From contig CAVWLW010000032.1 in NCBI GenBank assembly GCA_963755715.1, positions 22,564 to 86,563 of the forward strand: DNA of 64,000 nt. Reading direction: 5' to 3'. This document shows, in pieces, positions 5,915 through 24,363 of this stretch. The stretch is from an uncultured delta proteobacterium (GTDB lineage: Bacteria > Desulfobacterota > Binatia > UBA9968). The notes under the pieces were generated by a model, which saw only the letters and a program-made list of their open reading frames with translations, did not search any database and was not told the origin of the DNA. How positions within the stretch are numbered: position 1 is the stretch's first letter; each line of letters begins with the position of its first letter. Position numbers and translations under genes: made by a program.

Positions 5915-6548
5915 ACGCGACATCATTATTTGCCACGACGCTGATGAGCTGGCGCGAAAGGCGGCGGAACAGTTTGTTTCTCTCGCCGACGCCGCGATCG
6001 CCCGATCCGGACGATTTACCGTGGCACTGTCAGGCGGATCGACGCCGCGGGCATCTCTTTTGGGGTGATGAGCGCTGCGTGCCGCCGGATCACGCCGAGA
6101 GTAATTACCGCATGGTTCAGGAGGCGCTGCTGTCGAGAATCAGCATTCCAGCCGGAGAATATTCACCGCATGGCGGGCGAAAAGGAGCCGCGCGTAGCGG
6201 CGAATGAGTACGAAGAGGAATTACGCAGGTTCTTTGCTTTGCGCCGGCCAGTACGGCCTCGCTGCTTTTCCCGGCGGCGCGGCGCTCAATCAAAATGAAC
6301 GTCTGGTGGCAACTGCTTACGTCGAAAGACTCAGAGCCCACCGCCTGACGCTGACTTTGCCGGTCATCAACGCTGCGGCGCAGGTTACCTTCCTGATTGC
6401 CGGGCAGAGCAAGCGCGCCATCGTGAACGAGATCTTGCGGTCGGACGCCGACTCATTCAAGTATCCCGCTGCGCGGGTGAGCCCAAGCGACGGACAACTG
6501 ACCTGGTTGATCACCGCTGACGCCATGGAAAATTTGCCGATTCGATAA
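5908..6548 (+). pseudogene. pgl: 6-phosphogluconolactonase, disrupted by at least three frameshifts
   Basis: The GTG start overlaps the glk stop. Frame 1 has …[12 protein letters not shown]. Frame 2 has [28 protein letters not shown]. Frame 3 has …[12 protein letters not shown]…. Frame 4 has …FPGGAALNQNERLVATAYV…TFLIAGQSKRAIVNEIL… through to the stop. All pieces align to the DevB/Pgl family in order. Confidence 0.75.
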
Positions 6549-6619
6549 AAGCTTCAATCGAATCCCCGCGGCACGAGCTAGAGTTGCCAGAAATTATCTG
6601 TCAGTGAAGGGAGCGCGCT

Positions 6620-7342
6620 ATGAGCGGCTATAACTACGAGAGCTTCGGACAGTGCGATATCGATGCCCCGGATTTTTGGGCAGTTGCCACGATCGGGACG
6701 AAGGCGCCGGATTTTAACTTGGCGGATCTCGACGGCAATCTGGTTTCGCTGTCGTCGTTTGCCGGCAAGAAGCATGTGTTGTTGGAATTCGGCAGCATCA
6801 CGTGACCGCCGTTTGTGGGGGAGGTTCCTCCGCTGACCAAACTCTACCGCGAGTATCGGACGGCAAATTTTCAGTTCTTCATCGTTTACGCCCGCGAAGC
6901 TCATCCCGGGGAAAACTATCCGCACCATACTTCATTGGAACAAAAGCTGGCGCACGCTCGCACGCTGCGCGACTTGGAGCAGATCCAGGAAATTCCGATT
7001 CTCGTCGACGATTTCGCCGGGACAATGCATCGCGCTTACGGCCTCCTGCCGAATATGACCTATCTGATCGACCGCGACGGTATTGTCGTTTACAAGTCCG
7101 ATTGGGGCGATGCGCAGGAAATCGATGGCGTGTGCGCAGCCTCGTCCGACGTCGACGAAATGAAGGCGAATAACGTACCGATCATTCGCCAGGGAATTTC
7201 CCAGCGACTCCACTGGATTCCTATGGACCCCGTGCAGCGCGAACGGGTTTACCGGCGCTCGGGAGAAAAAGCGATTCGCGATTATTTGAACGCGCGCGGC
7301 AGCTTGCCTTACGCGACCGATGCGGAGAAGGCTAAGCGGTAA
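6620..7342 (+). CDS. Iodothyronine-deiodinase-like thioredoxin-fold selenoprotein (in-frame UGA at 6803-6805 read as Sec)
   Basis: ORFs 6620..6805 and 6815..7342 are in the same frame, separated only by TGA. The joined sequence is …KAPDFNLADLDGNLVSLSSFAGKKHVLLEFGSIT-U-PPFVGEVPPLTKLYREYRTANFQFFIVYAREAHPGENYP…. This matches the deiodinase active-site signature FGSxTUPPF and the downstream (V)YIxEAH motif. Confidence 0.75.
6811..6840 (+). ncRNA. Candidate bacterial SECIS hairpin for the deiodinase-like gene
   Basis: GUUUGuGGGGGAGGuuCCUCCgcugacCAAAC begins 6 nt 3' of the UGA. It has a GGAGG/CCUCC inner stem, a G/U-containing apical loop and a GUUUG/CAAAC outer stem. Confidence 0.4.
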
Positions 7343-13290: not shown

Positions 13291-13367
13291 ATAGAAGTCG
13301 ATTCATAGTTGACAGGACGATAACCCTCGCCTTTTCAAACGGGGTGTGCGCGAGAGGTAATTTCAGA

Positions 13368-15039
13368 ATGACTGCGGAATTTACTCCCGAAGAACAAGCG
13401 CGCCTTGCGCCGTTTTTTACCAATCTCGATCGTTCGACGTTCGGCTTGAAATTGCCCCAGGAGGTCGCCGGCGCCTTGTTCTCGCGCTACAGCCGCTCGA
13501 CGAAAAGTCTGCGGCGAACTTTCCTCGATGAATTTCTCGGCGATCCGACGCTTGGATTAAGCGATCTCCTTTCCGGACAAGCCGAGCCCGCAGCCGACAG
13601 CACGGCATTGAAAAAAGCGCGAGCGTTTTACGAGCGCGTGTTGGTCGGTTACGGCGACGATTCGGTCGCGCAGTTGGGCGGCGCTCATCTGGCCTGCGAA
13701 AATATTTCCAACGTCGCCGCCAAACTGCTCGAAGACGCGCGCATCGGCATCGCGCCGCTGGAAAAATCGACGCGCTATGTGCGCTTCGATCAGAAGGACG
13801 CGGCCGGGAATTATCTCTTCTACCGCGAGCCCAAGATCATGGCGTCGCGCCACCGCGACGCTTATCTCGAAGTCATGAATCTGCTCTTCGACACTTACTC
13901 GCGGCAGATGGAGCCGATGCTGGCGTCGATTGCCAAGGCGCTGCCCATCGAGCAAGTGGAGGTGCGCGATCCGAGCAGCGGTAAATCCCTGAGTTACAGC
14001 GAAGCGCAGAAAGATGATCGACTGCGGCGCTGGGCGGAGACCGCCTATCGCGCCACCGTGCGCGCCCATGCGTGCGACGTGCTGCGCAGTTATCTGCCGG
14101 CTGCGACCTTGACCAACGTCGGCATGTTCGGCGTCGGCCAGGCGTTCGAATATCTAATCAGCAAATTCTACTCGCATGAGCTGAGCGAAGCGCAGGAACT
14201 TGGCCGCGCGATGCACGGCGAGCTGAATCAGCTCATTCCGTCGTTCGTCAAGCGCGCGCAGTTGAATGAGTATCTCGTTGGCACGACGGCGGCGGCAAAG
14301 GTGCTGGCGGCAAAGGCCGTTAATGTTTCACCGTGCGACGCCAAAGAACCGGTGACGCTGATCGACTACGACGCCCAAGCCGAAGAGAAAACCATCGCGG
14401 CGATTCTGTACTCGCACGCGCGTCAGCCGTTGATGCAGCTGCGCGAGATCGCCGCCAAGATGAGCGATGAAGATCGTCGCAAGATTCTCAAAGAGTTTTT
14501 TAGCAAACGCCGCCACCGCCGCGACAAACTCAGCCGCGCTTTCGAGAACGTTTATTACACCTTCGATATCCTCGGCAATCTCGGCCTCTATCGCGATCTG
14601 CACCGCCATAGAATTCTTACCCAGGAGCGCCAGGACTTCACCACCGTGCACGGCTACGACACGCCGCCGGAGATCGAAGAGGCGGGTTTCAAGAGCGAGT
14701 TCGACGATTGCATGAAGCGCGCGGCGGATTTGTACGAGCGGATTTACGCCGATCTGCCGAGCGAAGCGCAGTACGTCGTGCCGTTCGCCTACAAGATCCG
14801 CTGGTACATGAAGATGAATCTGCGCGAAGCGCTGCACATGTGCGAGCTGCGCACGATGCCGCAAGGTCATCCCGGACTATCGTTTCATCTGCCAGGAGAT
14901 GTGGCGCAGGATTCAGGAAGTTCATCCAGCGTTGGCGGAGTGCGGCAAGTTTATCGATTGGAAAAAATATCGGTTGGGACGGTTGCAATCAGAAATGCGG
15001 ACGGAGTTTAAGAAATCGGCGTTGAAAAAGGGAGAATAG
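13368..15039 (+). CDS. thyX: Long-form flavin-dependent thymidylate synthase (ThyX-like, tandem ThyX-type domains), C-terminal frameshift at about 14877
   Basis: The C-terminal domain carries ThyX-like motifs (…LYRDLHRHRILTQERQDF… and …YKIRWYMKMNLREALHMCELRTMPQGHP-DYRFICQEMW…). The N-terminal half is a degenerate second copy (…STRYVRF…). The annotated frame drifts after GHP. The family-consistent continuation (DYRFICQEMWRRIQEVHPALAECGKFIDWKKYRLGRLQSEMRTEFKK…*) runs in another frame to 15039. Confidence 0.6.
14871..15010 (+). repeat. thyX 3'-end direct repeat, copy 1 (native gene end)
   Basis: About 140 bp, near-identical to 16361-16500 apart from a 1-nt indel and a few substitutions. Confidence 0.8.
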
Positions 15040-15261
15040 ACCAACCGGTGAAGTTGCAAGACAGTAAATGCCAATGCAACGTGCCCATTCTGTTTTGCGC
15101 CCCTGAAGGCTGATGGTTTCTGGGCCTGAGTGGGCAATTTCGCAGGCAGCGTCTGCGAAATCCAATTTACGTTGCGGTCAATACGAGTGTTTGTTCCAAG
15201 CCTGCGTTACCATAATAGGATTCTATGTTTTCACAAAAATATCTGCTTAGAAACTTTATTG

Positions 15262-15292
15262 TTGCGCATTTGCGCAATTGAGCAAACATGCG
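15262..15292. promoter_or_regulatory. Palindromic operator-like site upstream of the ArsR gene
   Basis: gTTGCGCAtTTGCGCAAttgagcaaacatgcg contains the perfect palindrome TTGCGCAA. The 23-nt core ttgcgcaattgagcaaacatgcg is repeated exactly at 15616-15638. Confidence 0.5.
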
Positions 15293-15604
15293 GTAAAGGG
15301 CGGCATGGACGAAAAGGTCTATTGCCAGTCGCGTCTTTGCCGCCTCATGGGTAACCCGATCGCTTTCGCCGTCGTCGATGCGCTCAGTCAGAATAAAGAA
15401 CTAACCCCGAGCGAGATCGCGCACGCCGTTGGCCGCAGCGTGTCGCGAGTGAGCCACGTCTTGGCGTCGTTACGGTTGGCAGAGGTCGTCCGTTATGACA
15501 CCGACGGGCGACAGGCGCGCTACCGCTTGAAACATCCTCGGGAAACTCGGGACCTTCTGAAGGCCCTCGCATCATTCATCGACTTGTCCTCGGCGTTTCA
15601 GTGA
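15278..15604 (+). CDS. ArsR/SmtB-family transcriptional regulator
   Basis: …MGNPIAFAVVDALSQNKELTPSEIAHAVGRSVSRVSHVLASLRLAEVVRYDTDGRQARYRLKH… is a winged HTH. The likely start is the ATG at 15347. Confidence 0.8.
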   Translation: MSKHAVKGGMDEKVYCQSRLCRLMGNPIAFAVVDALSQNKELTPSEIAHAVGRSVSRVSHVLASLRLAEVVRYDTDGRQARYRLKHPRETRDLLKALASFIDLSSAFQ

Positions 15605-15609
15605 CATTT

Positions 15610-15640
15610 GCGGACTTGCGCAATTGAGCAAACATGCGTG
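15610..15640. promoter_or_regulatory. Second copy of the ArsR operator-like palindrome, just downstream of the regulator gene
   Basis: cggacTTGCGCAAttgagcaaacatgcgtg, an exact 23-nt repeat of the upstream site. Confidence 0.45.
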
Positions 15641-16000
15641 TTCCCGGTGGGAGGAGCAGCAAGAGAATCTCCACGCACGAACGAACTGCAAACTGTAGAA
15701 ATCAAAACTCAGTGTGTTCTTGAACGTAAGTCCGGTGACTATGATGCCTTAGCCGAGCCGGTGGCGTCTACGTCGGTATCTCGCCCATAGCCCGGCGACC
15801 GGGTTTTCACGCTACCCGAGGTCGTTCAAGGAACAACCGTGAGCACCGCGCAACCGTCAACCGCAAAGTCCTGGAATGCAGAATCGTGCATTGGCCAACA
15901 GCAGCACCGCGATTGTCTTTGATCCACGTCCCAGAGGCGGCCATAGAGCCACTCTCGTTTTGGCTTGGCGGACGGTCCGGCGAATGGTAATTTCTATGCG

Positions 16001-16321
16001 ATGAAAACGAGTATTGATCACGCCGGCAGATTGTTGATACCTAAGGAAATTCGTCGGAAGTCCGGCATCAAGCCAGGAATGCCGCTTGAGGTGCGTTGGG
16101 AAAAAGGTGCCATCGCCATTACTCCGGCTCCATTACCAGTGAAGCTGCGAAGGCGAGACCGACTGCTGGTAGCGATTCGGCGCAAGAATGGCCCATCTCT
16201 TTCCACCAAGACCGTCAACTTAACCCGCAAGGCACAGCGCAAAGATTTTTGGCGACTTGTCGACCGTGCCCACAAAAGAGGGGGAAAAGAAAGGGTTTAC
16301 CAAGCTCGACGATCTACCTGA
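16001..16321 (+). CDS. AbrB/MazE/SpoVT-family DNA-binding protein (antitoxin-like, no cognate toxin seen)
   Basis: MKTSIDHAGRLLIPKEIRRKSGIKPGMPLEVRWEKGAIAI is a swapped-hairpin barrel motif. Confidence 0.6.
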   Translation: MKTSIDHAGRLLIPKEIRRKSGIKPGMPLEVRWEKGAIAITPAPLPVKLRRRDRLLVAIRRKNGPSLSTKTVNLTRKAQRKDFWRLVDRAHKRGGKERVYQARRST

Positions 16322-16360
16322 GTAAGAATCGCAGCCCAAAAGACGCCGCCGTCGGTCACC

Positions 16361-16500
16361 CCGACTATCGTTTCATCTGCCAGGAGATGTGGCGCAGGAT
16401 GCAGGAAGTCCATCCAGCGTTGGCGGAGTGCGGCAAGTTTATCGATTGGAAAAAATATCGGTTGGGGCGATTACAGTCAGAAATGCGGACGGAGTTTAAG
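16361..16500 (+). repeat. thyX 3'-end direct repeat, copy 2
   Basis: Near-identical to 14871-15010. Encodes …HPDYRFICQEMWRRMQEVHPALAECGKFIDWKKYRLGRLQSEMRTEFK in frame. Confidence 0.8.
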
Positions 16501-16657
16501 AGGTCAACAATTGAGAATAAAGCATAGTTGAGCGGTAGTTATGAAGGTTGCAATATTCTCGTTGCTCGGTGAGTTGTGGACCCGGTAGGGGGATTGGATT
16601 GTTTATTTGTCCAGGCCTGACCTTGGCGACCTGACCGAAGGGGAAAATCATGACAAA

Positions 16658-17401
16658 TCAGCTCTTGATCTTGCCCAGAATGTGAAGGATCTGAAGTCTG
16701 AGTGGTTTGGGAAAGGTAAGCTGACCGGCCTGGAACCTGCCAAAGCAGAAGTTAAAAATTGATAGGAAATCGTGACGCAAGGTTTGTGAAGTGTGGTGTT
16801 GATGGAGGGCGCGCAGCGCCGGGCCATGGCAATTCCGGACTTTGACTGCGCTCCCACACGGACAGGTGTGATGGCCACGATAACCCCACTCGAAAAGGAA
16901 AATTATGACGGCCAGCGCCACCAATTCATCGGCCAGGTGCAGCGTGTCAATGTAGTGTTGGACGATTCCCTCCTGCCCGTGCGCCTGTTCAGCGAAAGGA
17001 TGCTGACCATGCTGTTTCCAATAGCAGTAACCGTACAAATAGGGAATGACCAGCCGGTTTACAAAACCGAGCAGTGAAGGTTGTTCGAAGAAAATCCGTC
17101 GTTCCTCCACTGGGACGGCCAGACAAAGCGACCCGTCACTATAAATGTGTGGATAACTGCGCTCGATTCTGCCCGCGGTCTCTCTTACCCGCGGCAACAT
17201 GTCTGGAAAGACAGGGGGGATGCGCAATTCGATCTCGAACTTATCCGTAACCGTTTCGAGTCCGTCGGCCGATGCTTCGAACGGCAGGCTTCCAGAGAGC
17301 AACGTTTCATGTTCCAGTTCGGTAAGGTTCGTGAGGCCCCGATAAATTTCCATTAGCTCGGCGAGCTGCCTCGTCATCTCCTCGGTCACCCGGCCCTCCA
17401 A
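16658..17401 (-). CDS. Stand-alone E2 (UBC-fold) ubiquitin-conjugating-like enzyme with a C-terminal SEC-C zinc finger (Cap2-short-like)
   Basis: UBC core …IELRIPPVFPDMLPRVRE…ERSYPHIYSDGSLCLAVPVEE is an HPN-like motif plus a catalytic Cys. The C-terminal HHTCPCGSAVKVRNCHGP matches the SecA-type SEC-C metal-binding motif. The start overlaps the upstream NTase by 16 nt. Confidence 0.65.
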   Translation of the reverse strand: MEGRVTEEMTRQLAELMEIYRGLTNLTELEHETLLSGSLPFEASADGLETVTDKFEIELRIPPVFPDMLPRVRETAGRIERSYPHIYSDGSLCLAVPVEERRIFFEQPSLLGFVNRLVIPYLYGYCYWKQHGQHPFAEQAHGQEGIVQHYIDTLHLADELVALAVIIFLFEWGYRGHHTCPCGSAVKVRNCHGPALRALHQHHTSQTLRHDFLSIFNFCFGRFQAGQLTFPKPLRLQILHILGKIKS

Positions 17402-18590
17402 GGCTTGGCGGCGCCTGTGATGTGGATGCGAGGGGGACTGTCGATCAGGGTTTCAGTCGGAACGACGATCTCAAAATTCTTCGAGACGACCGTCGCACCC
17501 AAAGCGCTGGATAAGTGTTTCTTCAGCTGGCTCGGATTGGCTTCTCTCAGGATCTCAATAACGTCTTTCTGCAAGGCCCCCAACCATAAGAAGAAGGCGC
17601 GAGCGCGGGCGTGGCTATCCTCGTGCCAGCGGTCGGCAAAATTTTCTGCGGGGTTAACAGGGTTTCCGATATACCATTTCCCGTCCGGTGTTCTCTTGAT
17701 CAGTCCCATCGACGAGAGAGAACGGTCAATTGCCTTACCCTCAATGAGGCCCGCGTGTGCACCAAGTTTTTCGACAATACCGCATAGCGCCGAGTAGACA
17801 TCCGTTTCATTCCCGTATAAATGCGCCGACAACGTCGTGATGATGATTGAAATCGGCGCGTATATACAAGGCGCTCTTGGTGATTGAAGCGCGAGTCCAG
17901 GTAGCGTTTCATGATCTGGATTGCGCGTTGCAGCGGTGTGCGTACCAATTGGTCGGGAACTTTGTCGATACTTTCGTAAATGTATGGGATTTGCCGCTGG
18001 ATGACCCGCTTGTTCGAACACGACCTGCTCAAATGCCGCGGCATTTTTCCAGTCGAACCAGCTTCCGTAGCCTCTGGGATTGCTTACAGACCAGATATAG
18101 GAGGAATCCTTCTTGTTCGTAATTGCGATCGATGTGTCCGCATTATCGCGGAGATCAGGAACTCCGGGCAGAATGTCCAGGTGAAAGCCGACACCGTCCT
18201 GCTCGGCGTATTCCAGCGTCCAGCACCGCCGGCCTTCTGCGTCAAGCGTTTTCAGCGTAAGTCCCGTGTTCGCGGAGCCTGTTGCCGACCATGGAGTTGA
18301 CCAACTGTGGATCGGTCCGCTCTTTTGCAGGGGTATTTCGCAGACGAGGTCGATGTCGTAGCTTGCCTCCAAGCCATCTCGGATGGCCTCACTACCGTTC
18401 CCAGCCGGAAAAGAACCCTGTCACGATAAGATGCTCAACTCACCGGAGCGGCCAGGATGTTCCCGTCCTCCAGCCATGCACCAACTGTGTTGTACCGGTC
18501 CACCGCGTCCTGATATTTGCCGGGCGGGATATCAATCTCGGCGGCGACCTGCTCAAGAAAACGCGAATACTTTCTTAAATCGATCGTCAT
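17386..18590 (-). pseudogene. CD-NTase/SMODS-like pol-beta nucleotidyltransferase (cGAS/DncV-like), disrupted in all three frames by stops at 18421-18437
   Basis: The N-terminal helical piece is MTIDLRKYSRFLEQVAAEIDIPPGKYQDAVDRYNTVGAWLEDGNILAAPVS*. The remainder begins with the NTase signature QGSFPAGNGSEAIRDGLEASYDIDLV (GS…DxD), then …GFHLDILPGVPD (third acidic strand) and a helical C-domain ending …AAKPWRAG*. Confidence 0.55.
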
Positions 18591-18616
18591 AATGTTAACC
18601 TCGCACTCTATTGATC

Positions 18617-19654
18617 TTAAGACTTAGTTGCTGTGTCCAGCACATAGACGGGTTCAAATGCCTCGGCCGGCTCCTTAAGAACGCCAGATCGAGCGCAGGG
18701 GTGGCGGTCGCGAGCCAATGAATACCCAAGGCCCTTGAGGTCCTGAATTAATCGCCAGTCGTCCATCTTATATGTGTTGTAGGGGACGATATGGTTTATA
18801 CGGTGTATGGCCGTGCGCTCATGTTCGTGGCCGGTGGCGAGCTTTGCGATACCCATGGCCCCGTGGGACTGCCCGTCCATGAAAAGCTTTACGAGCTTCG
18901 TGCCGAGCGTTCCGATCCCAGCCGATTTCGGAACGGCTAGGTTTCTTCAAGGCAACCGAGGCTCAGGATGTGCAGGGAATCCCGTGACAGCCGAGGAGCG
19001 TCACGGCCTCGACAACGGCGAGATCGATCGGATTGTTCGCCCAAATGCCGCCATCCAAGAGCCCAACACCGTGCTCTGTAATGTGTTGTGGAAAATATGT
19101 CGGTGCCGCGGCGGTCGCGAGCGCGATGTCAACGGCGAACGACTTGTAATCGTTTCTGAGGCGCGGGTGATGCGCCGTCTTGTAGATATACACAGATTGG
19201 GCAACGGGGTTCAGCGGGGATGACAAGTCGGGTTTTCGCGTCACCGAGCCTTTTTCGCCGAGCACATCATGGAGAACGGTGCGCAGAGGTGCTGGGTCAT
19301 GCTTCCTCCGATACACCCAGCGGAGCGCGCGCAGATTTCGGCAAAGATAGTCGGCCACCGGGCGGTCGCCACCGAAAATCTCCGGGCCACGTTGTTCGTA
19401 AAGGTCCAGGAGATAAGAGAGGCCGAAAGGTTCATATTCAAGACCAATAGCGATGATTCCGCCGGTTGAGGTCCCTGCGATCAGATCGAAATAGGAGACG
19501 ATCGGGCGATTGAGATGTTGTTCGAGAGCGGCTAGAAAGGCCGCAGGGAATGTCTGAGAATGCCGCCGCCGTCGATGCACAGTATGCGGCGTTTTGCGGG
19601 CTCACCGTCGTTTTCAATTCCACTTAACTGCACCGATTTTCTGCTTCTCACCAC
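18617..19654 (-). pseudogene. Patatin-like phospholipase (CapV-like effector), at least two frameshifts
   Basis: N-terminus …KRRILCIDGGG (oxyanion motif), then a frameshift. Next frame has …FPAAFLAALEQHL…DLIAGTSTGGIIA (GxSxG) …LLDGGIWANNP (catalytic Asp). The C-terminal third continues in a further frame (18617..18955). Confidence 0.65.
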
Positions 19655-19759
19655 CTGAAGTTTGCGGCTAGGCCTCACTTGTGCAATCATGTTTCAGAGA
19701 TGATACAATCCGTCGAATCGAATGTCAAACAGGTTTTCACATATGAAACGGAGGCCCCA

Positions 19760-20125
19760 TGTCCAAGCTAACCTTGCAAATTCTCGGCAGGAGGTTGGCA
19801 GAAAAGCGAAAGTCACGAGGCATTAGAGAGGTCGCCAAGAAATCGGTGTTAGTCCGGCGACATTGTCCGAATTGAGCGAGGCTATGTCCCTGATATAGAA
19901 ACATTCGGTAAGGTTTGCCGGTGGATGGACGTCGATCCCGGTGAGATCTTAGGAGTAAAGCCGAAGGTGGCTAGTAAACCGAAAGCCGCTGTTCACTTTA
20001 AGAAGGATCAAACTTTGCAAATCGAAACTGCACAAGCTCTCGCTCAAATGATTCTCGCAGCCCAGCGCGCCATGATGGCTTCTGAGGGACAAGAGAATAG
20101 GCCGCTGTGTTGGTCCGGGGTTTAA
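19760..20125 (+). pseudogene. XRE-family HTH regulator (Cro/C1-type), frameshifted
   Basis: MSKLTLQILGRRLAEKRKSRGIREVAK | EIGVSPATLSELERGYVPDIETFGKVCRWMDVDPGEIL… The HTH is split by a 1-nt indel at about 19845. It lies divergent from the patatin gene, and the spacer has TGTTTCA/TGAAACA inverted repeats. Confidence 0.5.
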
Positions 20126-20165
20126 AAGCTGGTGTGAAAATGTCTCCGTTCACCTGCGAAAGGAC

Positions 20166-20711
20166 TTGGGGCTTATACCTAGCGCACCTCTAGACGTGAA
20201 AGCCTTGGCGGAGTGGCTGCATATAGAAATATGGACTCCTCACCAAATTCCTGGGCTTGAGTCGAAATGGACGCATGTACTTCTTAAGAAAGATCCCGAT
20301 GCCTGGTCGGCAGTCACATTAGCCATAAACTCCAAGAATTTGATTATTTTGAACTCTTCTCATTCTAAAGCACGTCAAGCAAGTGACCTGACGCACGAAC
20401 TATCTCATATCTTGATAGGCCACGAGGCTGGTCGGGTAGATATCTCACCGGACGGGTTGTTGATGCTGAACACTTACAATAGAGACCAGGAGGATGAAGC
20501 AAATTGGATGGCGGGGTGCTTGCTCTTGCCAAGAGAAGCCTTGGCGGTTGCTATAAAGCAACAGGTCGACTTCGAGATTACAGCAAAAAAATACGGAGTG
20601 AACCGTGAGATGCTACGTTGGCGGCTTAACGTAACCGGCGTGCAACGTCAGTTTGCACGAGGGCATAACAGGGCTCTGGGGTCTAACTTCCTAGGTCCCG
20701 ACGCTGATTAA
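20166..20711 (+). CDS. ImmA/IrrE-family metallopeptidase
   Basis: HEXXH-type motif (LTHELSHILIGHE). Sits next to an XRE regulator in the low-GC segment (about 42% GC, against about 62% for the window). Confidence 0.7.
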   Translation: MGLIPSAPLDVKALAEWLHIEIWTPHQIPGLESKWTHVLLKKDPDAWSAVTLAINSKNLIILNSSHSKARQASDLTHELSHILIGHEAGRVDISPDGLLMLNTYNRDQEDEANWMAGCLLLPREALAVAIKQQVDFEITAKKYGVNREMLRWRLNVTGVQRQFARGHNRALGSNFLGPDAD

Positions 20712-20915
20712 CGACGGAGCAGGGCTATTCAGGTAAATGTGGCAATGAAACGTTCTTATCGACTTTTGATAGAGGGCCTGGCTTTTGAATCTCATCATTT
20801 CCAACAATCAAAAAGAAAGATTTGAGACAGCATCGAAAGATTCGACACTAACAGCTACTATAAAGAAATTTTGACCTGAAACGTATTCCCCGTACCGAGA
20901 CCGAGTAGGGACGCC

Positions 20916-21932
20916 ATGACAGTTCGCATTGCCCAGTTCGTGCACGCCACCCACGATGTGGTGGACGAAGCTTTCCTGCGGGAATTTCCTGAAGTCGAGG
21001 CGGTGAAGGCCAATAACCTCGAAGCCCTGTCCGATGCGCTCGCCGGGGCGGAAATCTTCCATGTCTACAATTCCGCCTTTACACCGGAGTTCGCGAAGCT
21101 CGTGCGCGACAAGGGTCGTGCGCTGAAGTGGATTCAGTTCACGACCGTAGGCATCGATGTCGCGCTGAGAGTGGGACTGCCCGACGGCGTTTGGGTCACG
21201 AATTCCGGCGATGTGAGCCAGCGGGTGCTGGCCGGGCACGCCATCGCCCTGATGCTTGGCGTGATGCGGGGATTCCGTAGATTCGAGCCGCTGCGTGCGC
21301 GGCATGATTATGCGCGGCAGAGCTTGCCCCGCTACATGGTCGCGCCCGATGGCGCGCGCATGGTGATCCTCGGCATGGGCCGCATCGGTCAGGACATCGC
21401 GCGCAAGGCCAAGGCATTCGACATGGAGGTGATCTGCGTCACCCGCGCGCCCGCTCCCGCCGTGCCCGAGATCGACCGCGTGGTGCCCCGGGAAAAGGTG
21501 GACGAGGTGCTTCCTACTGCCGACGCGGTAATGATCGCGATGCCGCTCGACGCCGGCACTCAAGGATTTTTAAGCGCGGCAAGAATCGCGCTCATGAAAG
21601 AGACGGCTATCCTGGTAAATATCTCCCGCGGCAAGGTGGTGGACGAAGCCGCTCTGGCCCGCGCCCTCGCCGAAGGCCGCATCATGGGGGCAGGGCTCGA
21701 CGCTTTCGCCAAAGAACCGTTGCCCGCGGATAGTCCGCTCTGGGATCTCCCCAACGTGCTGATGACGCCCCATGTCGGCGGTAACGGCGGGCGCGAATTG
21801 TGGCGGCGGATGAGCGAACTTGTGCGCGACAACACGCGCCGCTATCTTTCGGGTGCGCCGCTCAAACACGTAGTGAGAACACCCGATGGGACGCTTCAAG
21901 GTTTTGAAAACCCGCAGGCTGGCAACTCATAG
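20916..21932 (+). CDS. D-isomer-specific 2-hydroxyacid dehydrogenase family protein
   Basis: NAD-binding VILGMGRIGQDIARKA and catalytic region …NISRGKVVDEAAL…TPHVGG. Confidence 0.85.
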   Translation: MTVRIAQFVHATHDVVDEAFLREFPEVEAVKANNLEALSDALAGAEIFHVYNSAFTPEFAKLVRDKGRALKWIQFTTVGIDVALRVGLPDGVWVTNSGDVSQRVLAGHAIALMLGVMRGFRRFEPLRARHDYARQSLPRYMVAPDGARMVILGMGRIGQDIARKAKAFDMEVICVTRAPAPAVPEIDRVVPREKVDEVLPTADAVMIAMPLDAGTQGFLSAARIALMKETAILVNISRGKVVDEAALARALAEGRIMGAGLDAFAKEPLPADSPLWDLPNVLMTPHVGGNGGRELWRRMSELVRDNTRRYLSGAPLKHVVRTPDGTLQGFENPQAGNS

Positions 21933-22162
21933 TGGGTGAATCTGAGGTCGAGAGTTTTATGCGAAAGACCAAAACCACTCGCTACGACGTTGCCGAACAC
22001 CTGCGAACACCGGAGGAAATGGCGGCATATCTTGAGGCTTGCCTCGATGAGGCAAAAGGAGATGCCGCCTTTATAGCCAAAGCTCTCGGCGATATTGCAC
22101 GCGCCCGCGGCATGACGCAGGTGGCGCGTGACACCTTTCGGTTTCAAGCATTGGCACGCTGA
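21932..22162 (+). CDS. Putative addiction-module antidote HTH protein (TIGR02684-like), orphan
   Basis: …TRYDVAEHLRTPEEMAAYLEACLDEAKGDAAFIAKALGDIARARGMTQVAR…. No RelE/ParE-type partner lies adjacent. Confidence 0.5.
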   Translation: MGESEVESFMRKTKTTRYDVAEHLRTPEEMAAYLEACLDEAKGDAAFIAKALGDIARARGMTQVARDTFRFQALAR

Positions 22163-23261: not shown

Positions 23262-23340
23262 GAATGCGGCGAATTTATTGACTCGAAAAACTACCGGCTT
23301 GGGGCGGTTGCAATCCGAGATGCGCACGGAATACAAGAAC
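23262..23340 (+). repeat. thyX 3'-end direct repeat, copy 3 (degenerate, about 75% identical)
   Basis: Encodes …NYRLGRLQSEMRTEYKN*, compared with …KKYRLGRLQSEMRTEFKK in copies 1 and 2. Confidence 0.6.
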
Positions 23341-23346
23341 TAAAAT

Positions 23347-24363
23347 TTGAATAACAAAGGGACAAATATGAAATGCCGGCTTACCTTGATGGCCGCCTTG
23401 ACCGTATCGCTCTGCTTCATTCGCGCTTCGATGGCGCCGGCCCAAGTTGCGAGAATCAAAGTCGGCTACTCCTCGATCGGTGTCGGCCAGTCGCTCGTCT
23501 GGGTTGCTAAAGAGGCGGGGCTTTTCAAGGAGAACGGGCTCGATGTGCAGCTTATTTTTATCGGCAGCTCGAGTATCCTGACTCAAGCCGTGATCGCCGG
23601 CGACGTGCCGATCGCGATCATGTCCGGCACGGCGGCGATCGGCTCGCAATTGGCGGGATCGGACGTTGTCATGGCTGCGAGCACAAAAAAAGATCCAGCC
23701 CAGGCATTTCTGGTCACCGCAAAAGGAATTTCACAACCCGCGCAGCTCAAGGGGAAAAGACTGGCGGTGAGCCGGCTCGGCGCATCTTCGGATTTTATCC
23801 TCAGGTTGATTCTCAAAAAGATCGGCTTAGTGCCGGACAAAGACGTGGCGATTGTGCAGATCGGCTCTTCGCCGGTCAGAATGGCCGCCTTGGTCAATGG
23901 CGCCGCCGATGGCACGGCGCTGACCTTCGAAGAGATGATGGTGGCCAAGAAAATGGGTTTTAACGTCATGCTCAACCTCGTGGAGTTGGGTGTCGAATCG
24001 CTAAACAGCGACGTCGTGACGACGCGAAAATTTATGCGGGAGTCGCGGGAAACCGTCCAACGGTTCATCAAGGGCATGATCAAAGGAGTGAGTTTCTTCG
24101 CCGCCAATAAAAAATTTTCCATGGATGTTATTGCCCGCTACACCAAGAGCAACGACACGGAAAAGATCGAATATGGCTATGACTATGCGGCAAAAATCTT
24201 TCTCAGGAAGCCTTACCCGCCGATCAAGGGAATCCAACTCGCCCTCGAAGAGATCGGCGAAAGAACTCCCGCGGCGAAGACAGCGAGTCCGGAGCAGTTT
24301 ATCGACATCTCTATCGTAAAAGAGCTCGATCAGAGCGGCTTTATCGATGCGCTTTACAAATAG
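23347..24363 (+). CDS. ABC-type substrate-binding protein, NMT1/THI5 (SsuA/TauA)-like, with signal peptide
   Basis: Signal peptide followed by IKVGYSSIGVGQSLVWVAKEAGLFKENGLDVQLIFIGSS…. Confidence 0.8.
   Translation: MNNKGTNMKCRLTLMAALTVSLCFIRASMAPAQVARIKVGYSSIGVGQSLVWVAKEAGLFKENGLDVQLIFIGSSSILTQAVIAGDVPIAIMSGTAAIGSQLAGSDVVMAASTKKDPAQAFLVTAKGISQPAQLKGKRLAVSRLGASSDFILRLILKKIGLVPDKDVAIVQIGSSPVRMAALVNGAADGTALTFEEMMVAKKMGFNVMLNLVELGVESLNSDVVTTRKFMRESRETVQRFIKGMIKGVSFFAANKKFSMDVIARYTKSNDTEKIEYGYDYAAKIFLRKPYPPIKGIQLALEEIGERTPAAKTASPEQFIDISIVKELDQSGFIDALYK

Follow-up and report, generated by a model that had tools for sequence, protein, structure and literature searches.

In the window, i.e. the whole 64,000-nucleotide stretch of DNA that was analysed, the minus strand between positions 16658 and 19633 carries a type II-short CBASS ("E2-CBASS") consisting of a CapV-type patatin, a clade-G-like CD-NTase and an E2-only Cap2 homologue. 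Together with a divergent capH/capP switch the system comprises five genes, and this type of anti-phage CBASS is an already catalogued kind. An earlier note on the same DNA had read the three co-oriented genes as a type II-short (E2-only) CBASS with a patatin effector, which is borne out by Pfam and NCBIfam matches and by PADLOC matches far beyond chance (7e-54 for a 205-aa piece of the patatin against PDLC00757, 2e-56 for a 328-aa ORF of the cyclase against PDLC00780 and 1.5e-71 for the E2 against PDLC00871). The motifs quoted there (DGGG, GTSTGG, DGG, QGSF, YDIDL, HLDIL, YPHIYSDGSLCLAV, CPCGSAVKVRNCHG and the KPWRAG end) could all be located in the translations or the DNA. Coordinates of the features are presented in Table 1.

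Table 1. Features of the CBASS locus and its surroundings in the window.
Feature	Position	Strand	Basis
True thyX 3' end, first repeat copy	14871..15013	+	Repeat search and alignment
E2-only Cap2 homologue, 243 aa, intact	16658..17389	-	UBC-fold core, catalytic Cys89, helical C-terminal extension
SEC-C-like zinc knuckle CPCGSAVKVRNCHG, E2 residues 176-189	16823..16864	-	Located after invariant YRGHH
CD-NTase pseudogene, clade-G-like cyclase	17386..18590	-	PADLOC cyclase matches on both fragments
CapV-type patatin phospholipase pseudogene	18617..19633	-	Pfam Patatin and PADLOC effector matches on 205-aa piece
capH/capV spacer, putative promoter and inverted repeat	19691..19749	-	Sequence reading
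capH-like XRE-family HTH repressor pseudogene	19759..20101	+	tblastn with intact protein
capP-like M78 (IrrE-type) metallopeptidase	20118..20711	+	Pfam Peptidase_M78, PADLOC capP

An intact five-gene allele is present in at least seven public metagenome assemblies (JGI 3300017605; ENA ERZ25039556, -560, -487 and -520; short-read Logan assemblies ERR11596052 and ERR11748452), where its products are 340, 400, 243, 114 and 195 aa in length. Three of these loci differ from one another by 0-1 nt over 5.8 kb. Intact homologous operons with the E2 plus SEC-C, which the earlier note had proposed to look for, therefore exist in nearly identical form in sister strains.

The patatin gene lies directly upstream of the cyclase as the adjacent effector by which CBASS is recognised. 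Its 205-aa piece matches Pfam Patatin (2.5e-16), while the intact 340-aa product matches the PADLOC effector model at 3.9e-95 and scores 234.7 bits against the NCBIfam equivalog NF041079, 'CBASS cGAMP-activated phospholipase' (cut-off 200). The intact cyclase of 400 aa, a length that fits the 'longer CD-NTase' trait of E2-CBASS, matches the PADLOC cyclase model at 4e-112, and in the window a 51-aa N-terminal piece also matches PDLC00780 (4e-8). QGSF, YDIDL and HLDIL of the pol-beta active site are all there; the gene is interrupted in the window. PDB relatives are the cGAS-like enzyme 9woo (5e-45), SmCdnG (2e-32) and BdCdnG (5e-13); the top match 9woo is annotated only as a cGAMP synthase and the nearest named solved relatives are CdnG enzymes. 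The PADLOC and PDB matches support the reading of this protein as a signalling CD-NTase and rule out an antibiotic nucleotidyltransferase or another non-signalling one. In E2-CBASS the cyclase docks its E2 through an additional C-terminal helix with a three-stranded sheet. The last 73 residues of the present cyclase gave no meaningful PDB sequence match, and the AF2 model (36 close homologues; mean pLDDT 55, below 50 at residues 374-387) was too poor for use.

The E2 adopts a UBC fold, as had been proposed, with its PADLOC match covering profile positions 4-227 of 241 and UBC-fold matches including SmE2 and Cap2; the codon of the catalytic Cys89 (TGT, 17125-17123) is located inside YPHIYSDGSLCLAV. 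Its GTG start codon (17389) and the TGA stop of the cyclase (17388-17386) share the tetranucleotide GTGA, an overlap that the earlier note had described, and since the homologues start at this GTG the gene is 16658-17389 and not 16658-17401. A contig profile search with an E2 alignment, seeded by the motif YRGHHxCPC, yielded 68 loci; searching genome contigs with a single E2 protein gave no matches and an alignment query was needed. The cyclase is directly upstream of the E2 in 64/68 of these loci and a patatin is present in 46/68, so that the expected co-occurrence of the three genes holds, and the patatin-cyclase-E2 operon is kept in 46-64 of the 68 loci in many phyla. Neither an E1 adenylation domain nor a JAB isopeptidase could be found within +/-10 kb in the intact reference locus, in agreement with the absence of these partners noted before.

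The regulatory pair at 19759-20711 on the plus strand had been missed in the earlier note, as had the composite island at the thyX 3' end and the intact alleles. The intact capH gene (114 aa) matches HTH_3/HTH_31, and no capH profile match at E<=0.001 was obtained for the HTH protein. In the window capH has suffered three single-base deletions at 19842, 19869 and 20089, and tblastn with the intact protein recovers it in two frames (19759-19839 and 19868-20089). The window capP matches Pfam Peptidase_M78 at 4.6e-16, above the cut-off, and PADLOC capP at 3e-11 (3e-11 to 4e-11 over window and intact alleles). It differs by 13% from the reference allele, whose intact gene encodes 195 aa; a 1-base deletion at 20121 shifts the original start out of frame and leaves TTG at 20166 as the first in-frame start, and a +1 insertion at 20691 extends the C-terminus. 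Homologues of this HTH/M78 pair are present in only 4/68 loci (tblastn E<=1e-5). The spacer between capH and capV contains a putative sigma70-like promoter of the capV operon, TTGACA (19728-19723) and TATCAT (19705-19700) separated by 17 nt. It is bracketed by an inverted repeat, GTTTCA...TGAAAC, which is also seen in the intact allele and is a candidate CapH operator.

The host, an uncultured bacterium that is probably Binatia-like, carries the CBASS in a small composite island located at the thyX 3' end. Beyond the first copy of the thyX 3' repeat, further copies are located at 16359-16501 (95% identical) and 23299-23354 (75%), so that the copies bracket the CBASS-bearing island, which holds other decayed remnants as well, namely the thyX 3' copies and a truncated HigA-like gene. 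Neither a tRNA scan nor an Rfam scan of the entire window gave a match, so that a tRNA integration site does not account for the island.

The zinc knuckle of the E2 had been described as an unusual, C-terminal SEC-C motif, and neither part of this description stands. The motif occupies residues 176-189 of the 243-aa protein, and a knuckle of this type is invariant across the ~243-aa CBASS E2 family (120/120 best homologues; 139/150 diverse representatives). The corresponding count among the 68 loci (66/68) is biased because the YRGHHxCPC motif seeded their retrieval. Residues C176, C178, C187 and H188 are invariant in 36 diverse E2 homologues and the PADLOC CBASS E2 model already covers the knuckle. 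The E2 family profile matches the SecA zinc-domain peptides 1tm6, 1ozb and 1sx0 at E 0.007-0.018; the single E2 sequence scores 15.1 bits against Pfam SEC-C, under its cut-off of 20.4. This E2 family comprises at least 1,400 50%-identity clusters at E<=1e-10, and in our literature search no publication connected SEC-C or zinc with the E2 proteins of CBASS.

The Ala-Gly end of the cyclase, which had been taken as compatible with C-terminal conjugation, fares no better. The tail motif of the family is K-P-W-(R/G/K) followed by 1-2 variable residues. Among the 120 closest cyclases the residue after the invariant PW is R in 104, G in 8, K in 6 and Q in 2; Gly is the last residue in 17/120, and any Gly after PW is present in 27/120. 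More distant members end in KPWG plus 0-4 residues. The Ala-Gly end is thus not conserved and therefore unusable as a conjugation signature; the family lacks the conserved C-terminal glycine of E2-CBASS, though the window allele itself ends in Ala-Gly.

The copy in the window is disrupted, as the earlier note had seen, and the damage is worse than described there. Compared to the intact allele, capV carries 10 indels, the cyclase 8 and capH 3, and the uninterrupted effector, cyclase and regulator frames of the seven intact copies are absent from the window, where the patatin is split over at least three frames. In the cyclase, an in-frame +3 insertion at 18422 creates a premature TGA directly before QGSF. 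The stops in all three frames that had been reported for this gene are seen, on reading the sequence, as TGA codons at 18442-18421. Frame-shifted stretches of the cyclase replace nearly invariant residues, e.g. residues 193-235, and exact match to the intact allele is limited to the last ~157 codons (17859-17389). The system as written in the window is dead.

In the comparison with the three intact loci, all 145/145 substitutions and 38/38 indel columns are unique to the window. The window-unique indels are concentrated at the CBASS, with 4 in 7.4-14.9 kb, 2 in 14.9-17.86 kb and 28 in 17860-20883; these 28 break capH, capV and the cyclase and abolish the capP start, and they include indels at 18385, 18938, 18989 and 19554. 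In the E2 and in all DNA between 17855 and the thyX end there is practically no difference from the references. No independent contig or copy of the broken allele was found by metagenome scans or by an exact-product look-up of the 51-aa cyclase stub: a 33-mer specific to the window and spanning the TGA insertion gave 0 hits, and so did the thyX frameshift junction with or without its extra base.

Between genuine pseudogenisation in this strain and a local artefact of the consensus, we favour the former with modest confidence, because the rest of the window is of good quality and filtered by selection while the broken segment resembles neutral intergenic DNA. Elsewhere in the window ORFs are long and intact with 85% coding density. 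Beyond 23 kb, indels relative to L074, a related long-read-style assembly, fall almost only in intergenic spacers and therefore the window appears selection-filtered, not noisy. In the segment 17856-19650 substitutions amount to 1.8%, no different from the strain-level divergence seen in the housekeeping genes on either side (0.9-4.3%). Its codon differences are 7 synonymous to 18 non-synonymous as compared to 24:10 in the neighbouring dehydrogenase, and its ratio of indels to substitutions (19:32) is statistically indistinguishable from that of intergenic DNA in the same strains (36:100; Fisher p=0.15). Two observations on the broken segment deserve mention. Its indels are all of 1-3 nt, without the larger deletions present in spacers, which counts against real decay, as does the failure to find an independent copy of the broken allele. 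The boundary between identical and damaged sequence lies inside the cyclase gene at about 17855, which a chimeric or mixed-strain consensus would also yield.

A serious alternative, to which we give appreciable though lesser credence, is that the locus is intact in the organism and that the 28 indels, with the mismatches next to them, arose as errors in the consensus of a long-read or mixed-strain metagenome assembly, within a strain-variable island. The small size of the indels and the breakpoint inside a gene would both suit such an origin, as would the 13/32 substitutions located within 5 nt of an indel and the state of capH, which pairs synonymous-biased divergence (15 synonymous to 6 non-synonymous substitutions) with 3 frameshifts. 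The window thyX also has a unique +1 frameshift (14871), and homopolymer indels occur at 16277 and 16337 in otherwise identical sequence. Among sister contigs with Flye-style names, clear clusters of errors are seen in genes that purifying selection maintains: thyX of L074 has 8 unique indels, which must be errors because the gene is under selection (41 synonymous to 14 non-synonymous substitutions), and the epimerase and AhpC genes are split in L069 and L074. However, the window is otherwise clean, and the indel rate here (~0.9%) is about 19-fold that elsewhere in the window. Homopolymers of 4 or more bases hold only about 4/18 of the capV and cyclase indels, no shared motif of the kind expected from methylation-type systematic error is apparent around 23 indel sites, and the pattern of substitutions and indels fits neutral spacer DNA.

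If pseudogenisation is real, the intact E2 together with the rest of 14923-17855 may form a tract acquired recently by recombination from a strain whose allele is intact. The intactness of the E2 would then reflect recent shared ancestry and not selection, because the tract spans ~1 kb that is non-coding as well as the final third of the dead cyclase gene. It is very unlikely that selection has kept the E2 alone, as an orphan that took on a new role once the toxic effector and the cyclase were lost. An intact E2 next to four damaged genes invites this idea, and in other genomes too the patatin or cyclase gene is split beside a whole E2 (L002, L005, L010, L015 and L029), but the E2 lies within a 2.9-kb tract with almost no substitutions, and with a cyclase adjacent in 64/68 loci an E2 is almost never found without one. 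Function of the operon as written, through programmed frameshifting, stop-codon read-through or split subunits, has a negligible probability: some frameshifts are later compensated, so that the 328-aa and 205-aa ORFs persist, but shifted stretches replace nearly invariant residues, a TGA precedes the GS motif, eighteen indels cannot all be programmed and the homologues are single intact genes. Frame-restoring indel pairs were also considered as a sign of selection for an open frame; 10/14 successive steps are compensating versus 7 expected (hand count, binomial p about 0.09), which is not significant, and the loss of invariant residues in the shifted stretches likewise rules this out.

For the intact form, we infer the mode of action from characterised homologues. 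The CapH repressor and CapP metalloprotease would control the promoter in the capH/capV spacer, and the clade-G-like CD-NTase would make a cyclic (di)nucleotide. The E2, via Cys89, would bind and covalently handle the C-terminal tail of the cyclase and thereby regulate it. The nucleotide would then activate the CapV patatin phospholipase, leading to destruction of the membrane and abortion of the infection.

For the window itself these results are of little import, as the defence-system type is catalogued and the copy is dead or mis-assembled. They illustrate that intact alleles of sister strains can tell "decayed" from "unusual", and that an intact E2 beside dead partners here points to a recombination tract and is not evidence of new function. 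The published E2-CBASS mechanism, in which the E2 attacks a conserved C-terminal glycine, was worked out on the short E2 type only, whereas in the much larger long-E2 family the E2 has a zinc knuckle and the cyclase tail is without that glycine; the roles of both are a testable question. It is conceivable, albeit doubtful in our estimate, that the ~243-aa knuckle E2s and cyclases ending in K-P-W-Arg-x-x form a mechanistically distinct, uncharacterised branch of E2-only CBASS. In such a branch, linkage of the cyclase could take place at a residue other than glycine, or its regulation could do without a covalent bond, and the zinc knuckle and C-terminal helices could provide a docking, acceptor or E3-like element absent from the short Serratia-type E2.

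Among known systems, the SmCdnG-SmE2 pair of Serratia marcescens (PDB 8hsb, 9kkb; PMC12948482 and Yan et al. 2024 cited there) shares with this locus an E2-only partner without E1 or JAB, a long clade-G-like CD-NTase (400 aa here; E=2e-32 to SmCdnG) and the overlap of the cyclase stop with the E2 start. Cyclase-E2 fusions have been noted for E2-CBASS (PMC12948482) and natural ones occur in the present family (P0379 and P0429). However, SmE2 has ~160 aa as compared to 243 aa here, where the invariant CxC...CH knuckle and ~55 further helical residues are present, and no sequence similarity of the E2 family profile to SmE2 was found. A glycine at or near the cyclase C-terminus serves linkage to the E2 in E2-CBASS and is conserved at the C-terminus of SmCdnG-type enzymes (PMC12948482), in contrast to the K-P-W-R-x-x of 104/120 close homologues here. 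The CapV effector also sets this locus apart from the SmCdnG-SmE2 system. Canonical type II CBASS (Enterobacter cloacae, 7to3; Bacillus cereus, PMC11153139) has a Cap2 E1-E2 fusion and a Cap3 JAB, while the locus has neither E1 nor JAB; the canonical cyclases typically end in Ala or Gly, while the C-terminal residue is not conserved in the present family. The patatin shares the DGGG, GTSTGG and DGG motifs of CapV, the cGAMP-activated patatin phospholipase (PMC12480259), from which the window copy differs in being broken. CapH and CapP regulate CBASS in a DNA-damage-responsive manner (bioRxiv 10.1101/2022.04.27.489752), and the arrangement is alike, i.e. a gene for an XRE-type HTH protein precedes one for an M78/IrrE-like metallopeptidase, and the pair is transcribed divergently from the CBASS operon; both genes are damaged in the window. 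Finally, SEC-C of SecA (PF02810) has the same CPCGSGxKxxxCHG pattern and spacing as the putatively metal-binding knuckle of the E2, but SEC-C ends a translocase whereas the knuckle is embedded within the E2 protein.

All three genes of the minus-strand locus (16658-19633), described in an earlier note as a CBASS-like defence operon, matched PADLOC CBASS models, and the motifs quoted in that note were all found in the window translations or DNA. The E2 matched PDLC00871 (1.5e-71) with profile positions 4-227 of 241 aligned, while the cyclase matched PDLC00780 in two pieces, a 328-aa ORF (2e-56) and a 51-aa N-terminal stub (4e-8). The E2 start shares a GTGA with the cyclase stop, and homologues also begin at that GTG. 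The PADLOC, Pfam and NCBIfam matches confirm the classification as an E2-only CBASS with a patatin effector (CapV). Beside the operon and divergent from it lies an HTH and M78 gene pair, which corresponds to the CapH/CapP arrangement reported for CBASS (bioRxiv 10.1101/2022.04.27.489752). The spacer between capH and capV contains a putative promoter (TTGACA-17-TATCAT) flanked on both sides by the inverted repeat GTTTCA...TGAAAC.

Genes of the CBASS locus and indels relative to the intact allele on contig L001
Feature	Position	Orientation	Match or remark	Indels
Patatin-like phospholipase (first, upstream gene)	18617-19633	minus	Pfam Patatin 2.5e-16; PADLOC phospholipase effector 7e-54	10
Pol-beta/CD-NTase nucleotidyltransferase (cyclase; middle gene)	17386-18590	minus	PADLOC PDLC00780	8
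E2-like protein, 243 aa (last gene)	16658-17389	minus	PADLOC PDLC00871	0
XRE-type HTH gene remnants (capH-like)	19759-20101	divergent from operon	absent from earlier note	3
M78/IrrE-type metallopeptidase (capP-like)	20118-20711	divergent from operon	Pfam 4.6e-16; PADLOC capP 3e-11; absent from earlier note	2, at its two ends
Neighbouring 2-hydroxyacid dehydrogenase				0

Intact homologous operons, which the earlier note had proposed to look for, were found in JGI, ENA and Logan assemblies. One protein on L001 (JGI contig Ga0187303_1550036) matches the window E2 at 100% identity, and this contig has the same neighbourhood with uninterrupted genes, whose products measure 114 aa (HTH), 195 aa (M78), 340 aa (patatin), 400 aa (cyclase) and 243 aa (E2). 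The intact locus is also present in ENA ERZ25039556, -560, -487 and -520, the last on a contig of 199 kb, and in the short-read Logan assemblies ERR11596052 and ERR11748452. Three intact copies differ mutually by 0-1 nt over 5.8 kb, and in a four-way alignment 145 of 145 substitutions and 38 of 38 indel columns are unique to the window. The intact patatin passes the NCBIfam equivalog 'CBASS cGAMP-activated phospholipase' (234.7 bits, cut-off 200) and the intact cyclase matches PADLOC at 4e-112, its closest solved structures being a cGAS-like enzyme (9woo, 5e-45), Serratia SmCdnG (2e-32) and Bradyrhizobium BdCdnG (5e-13).

The window differs from L001 by 30 indels, which bears out the disruption of patatin and cyclase noted earlier. 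TGA codons occur in all three frames at 18442-18421, a +3 insertion creates a TGA directly ahead of the cyclase QGSF motif, and capP is no longer in frame with its original start. An alignment of five sequences (7393-28503) places 4 window-unique indels at 7.4-14.9 kb, 2 at 14.9-17.86 kb and 28 at 17860-20883, a very uneven distribution. Segment 14923-17855, spanning the thyX end, the ArsR and MazE-like genes, the E2 and the last third of the cyclase, is near-identical to the references (0.07-0.3% difference), as compared to 1.8% for 17856-19650 and 0.9-4.3% for the flanking housekeeping genes. As judged from these alignments, the locus is a mosaic of tracts with unequal divergence from the references, and 14923-17855 is most plausibly a tract of recent recombination because its ~1 kb of non-coding DNA has almost no substitutions. 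Apart from two homopolymer-length differences, at 16277 and 16337, this 2.9-kb tract is identical to four reference contigs; one of the two differences changes the C-terminal end of the MazE/AbrB-like gene product, which has 107 aa in the references. In the regulator region (19750-20711), capH and capP are 6.3% and 12.8% diverged from the reference strains, versus 1-4% for flanking genes and 1.8% for the adjacent capV, which implies either a second recombination breakpoint, putatively near 19650-19750, or regulators that may be evolving fast.

Pseudogenisation of the broken segment is probably real. The window outside it is clean, with long ORFs unbroken and a coding density of 85%, and beyond 23 kb indels relative to the sister contig L074 (ENA ERZ25039520 contig_66065) are almost all confined to intergenic spacers, which is a mark of selection and not of noise. 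Within the broken segment substitutions are at the level of strain divergence, and codon differences are 7 synonymous and 18 non-synonymous, as compared to 24:10 in the dehydrogenase and 24:9 in thyX. Its indel to substitution ratio (19:32) is indistinguishable from that of same-strain spacers (36:100; Fisher p=0.15, or p=0.24 without indel-adjacent mismatches). The clean remainder, the spacer-like ratio, the non-synonymous excess and the recombination tract were all counted for real decay. A local consensus or chimera artefact in the assembly, somewhat unlikely on this evidence, would nevertheless agree with indels that are all 1-3 nt long, with the 13 of 32 substitutions lying within 5 nt of an indel and with a breakpoint between identical and damaged sequence that falls within a gene. 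Moreover, no independent copy of the broken allele was found by a metagenome scan with a window-specific 33-mer or by exact-product look-up. Sister assemblies with Flye-style contig names demonstrably hold error clusters: thyX of L074 has 8 unique indels, in the part equivalent to window 13330-14503, although purifying selection acts on it (41 synonymous and 14 non-synonymous substitutions), and an epimerase gene and an AhpC gene are both split in L074 and in the sister contig L069. The window capH shows the same combination of synonymous-biased substitutions and indels.

Two other window genes are damaged. In thyX (13344-15039; intact in L069, 545 aa), a window-unique extra C at 14871 shifts the frame of the last ~47 codons; since thyX substitutions are synonymous-biased, this change may reflect an error in the assembly or a mutation that is very recent. 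A 6-phosphogluconolactonase/Glucosamine_iso-like gene (~5950-6650; intact in L069, 235 aa), a second heavily damaged gene of the window, is broken by 56-nt and 48-nt deletions and five 1-2-nt indels.

A composite island next to the 3' end of thyX contains the CBASS locus. The final 143 nt of thyX (14871-15013) recur at 16359-16501 (95% identical) and a third, decayed copy lies at 23299-23354 (~75% identity), a repetition that points to several insertions, one after another, at a single attachment site. The 8.3 kb between the outer copies, in which no integrase or tRNA was seen, carry an ArsR-type HTH gene, a MazE/AbrB-like gene, CBASS, the 2-hydroxyacid dehydrogenase, a truncated HigA-like antidote gene (21932-22162) and a class II aldolase gene. 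GC3 is 0.51-0.62 in the CBASS genes versus 0.68-0.77 in neighbouring core genes, and a housekeeping protein has its nearest named relatives in MAGs labelled Candidatus Binatia or "Deltaproteobacteria" (best identity 93%).

By analogy with homologues (PMC12480259, PMC12948482; PMC11153139 for type II context), CapH of the intact system would repress the operon until cleaved by CapP on a damage signal, and the CdnG-like enzyme would make a cyclic (di)nucleotide. The E2 would dock on the cyclase tail and covalently process it via Cys89, setting cyclase activity, and activated CapV would break down membrane lipids, aborting infection. The window sequence as written permits none of these steps.

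A scan seeded with a profile and covering one genome per species yielded 66 loci across many phyla, including Binatia, Gammaproteobacteria, Nitrospira/Nitrospinaceae, Latescibacterota, Rhodothermales, Desulfobacterota and Firmicutes. Co-occurrence of the genes was upheld, the cyclase being directly upstream of the E2 in 64 of 68 loci and a patatin homologue present in 46 of 68. About eight of the closer loci have a whole E2 beside a split patatin or cyclase, so broken copies are not rare; the window copy is more damaged than any of them.

The SEC-C-type knuckle of the E2 (CPCGSAVKVRNCHG, residues 176-189) is present as had been claimed, but it is not unusual. The CxC...CH pattern occurs in 120 of the 120 best homologues (word-index search) and in 139 of 150 representatives (exhaustive profile search), several of the other 11 being markedly short (128-207 aa), and 36 diverse homologues share C176, C178, C187, H188 and the YRGHH ahead of them without exception. 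The exhaustive search recovered 2,149 clusters (50% identity) at E<=1e-3 and 1,420 at the stricter E<=1e-10, and SecA zinc-domain peptides score E 0.007-0.018 against the family profile. Since the PADLOC E2 model spans the knuckle region, the architecture is already catalogued; no paper tying SEC-C or zinc to CBASS E2 proteins was found in the literature searched.

The Ala-Gly end of the cyclase, the other supposed peculiarity, is not conserved. Among the 120 closest cyclases K-P-W (window tail 17386-17430) shows little or no variation, and the residue after it is R (104), G (8), K (6) or Q (2). One or two variable positions come next, and the chain ends about equally often in E, V, A or G. 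More distant cyclases end in KPWG plus 0-4 residues. Two natural single-chain fusions of a cyclase with a SEC-C-bearing E2, both parts from the families described here (P0379, 651 aa; P0429, 616 aa), are joined just past the conserved PW motif. In the published model the E2 attacks a conserved cyclase glycine and trims the trailing residues (PMC12948482). The KPWG-type tails are consistent with it, whereas the Arg-type tail of the window cyclase's subfamily has no obvious fit; characterised E2-CBASS cyclases are instead reported to have a conserved terminal glycine. This raises a modest question about the role of a long E2 with a putative zinc knuckle together with a glycine-less cyclase tail. 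The system itself, an E2-only CBASS with CapV and CapH/CapP, is of a kind already known, and the window copy is a new but broken member of it.
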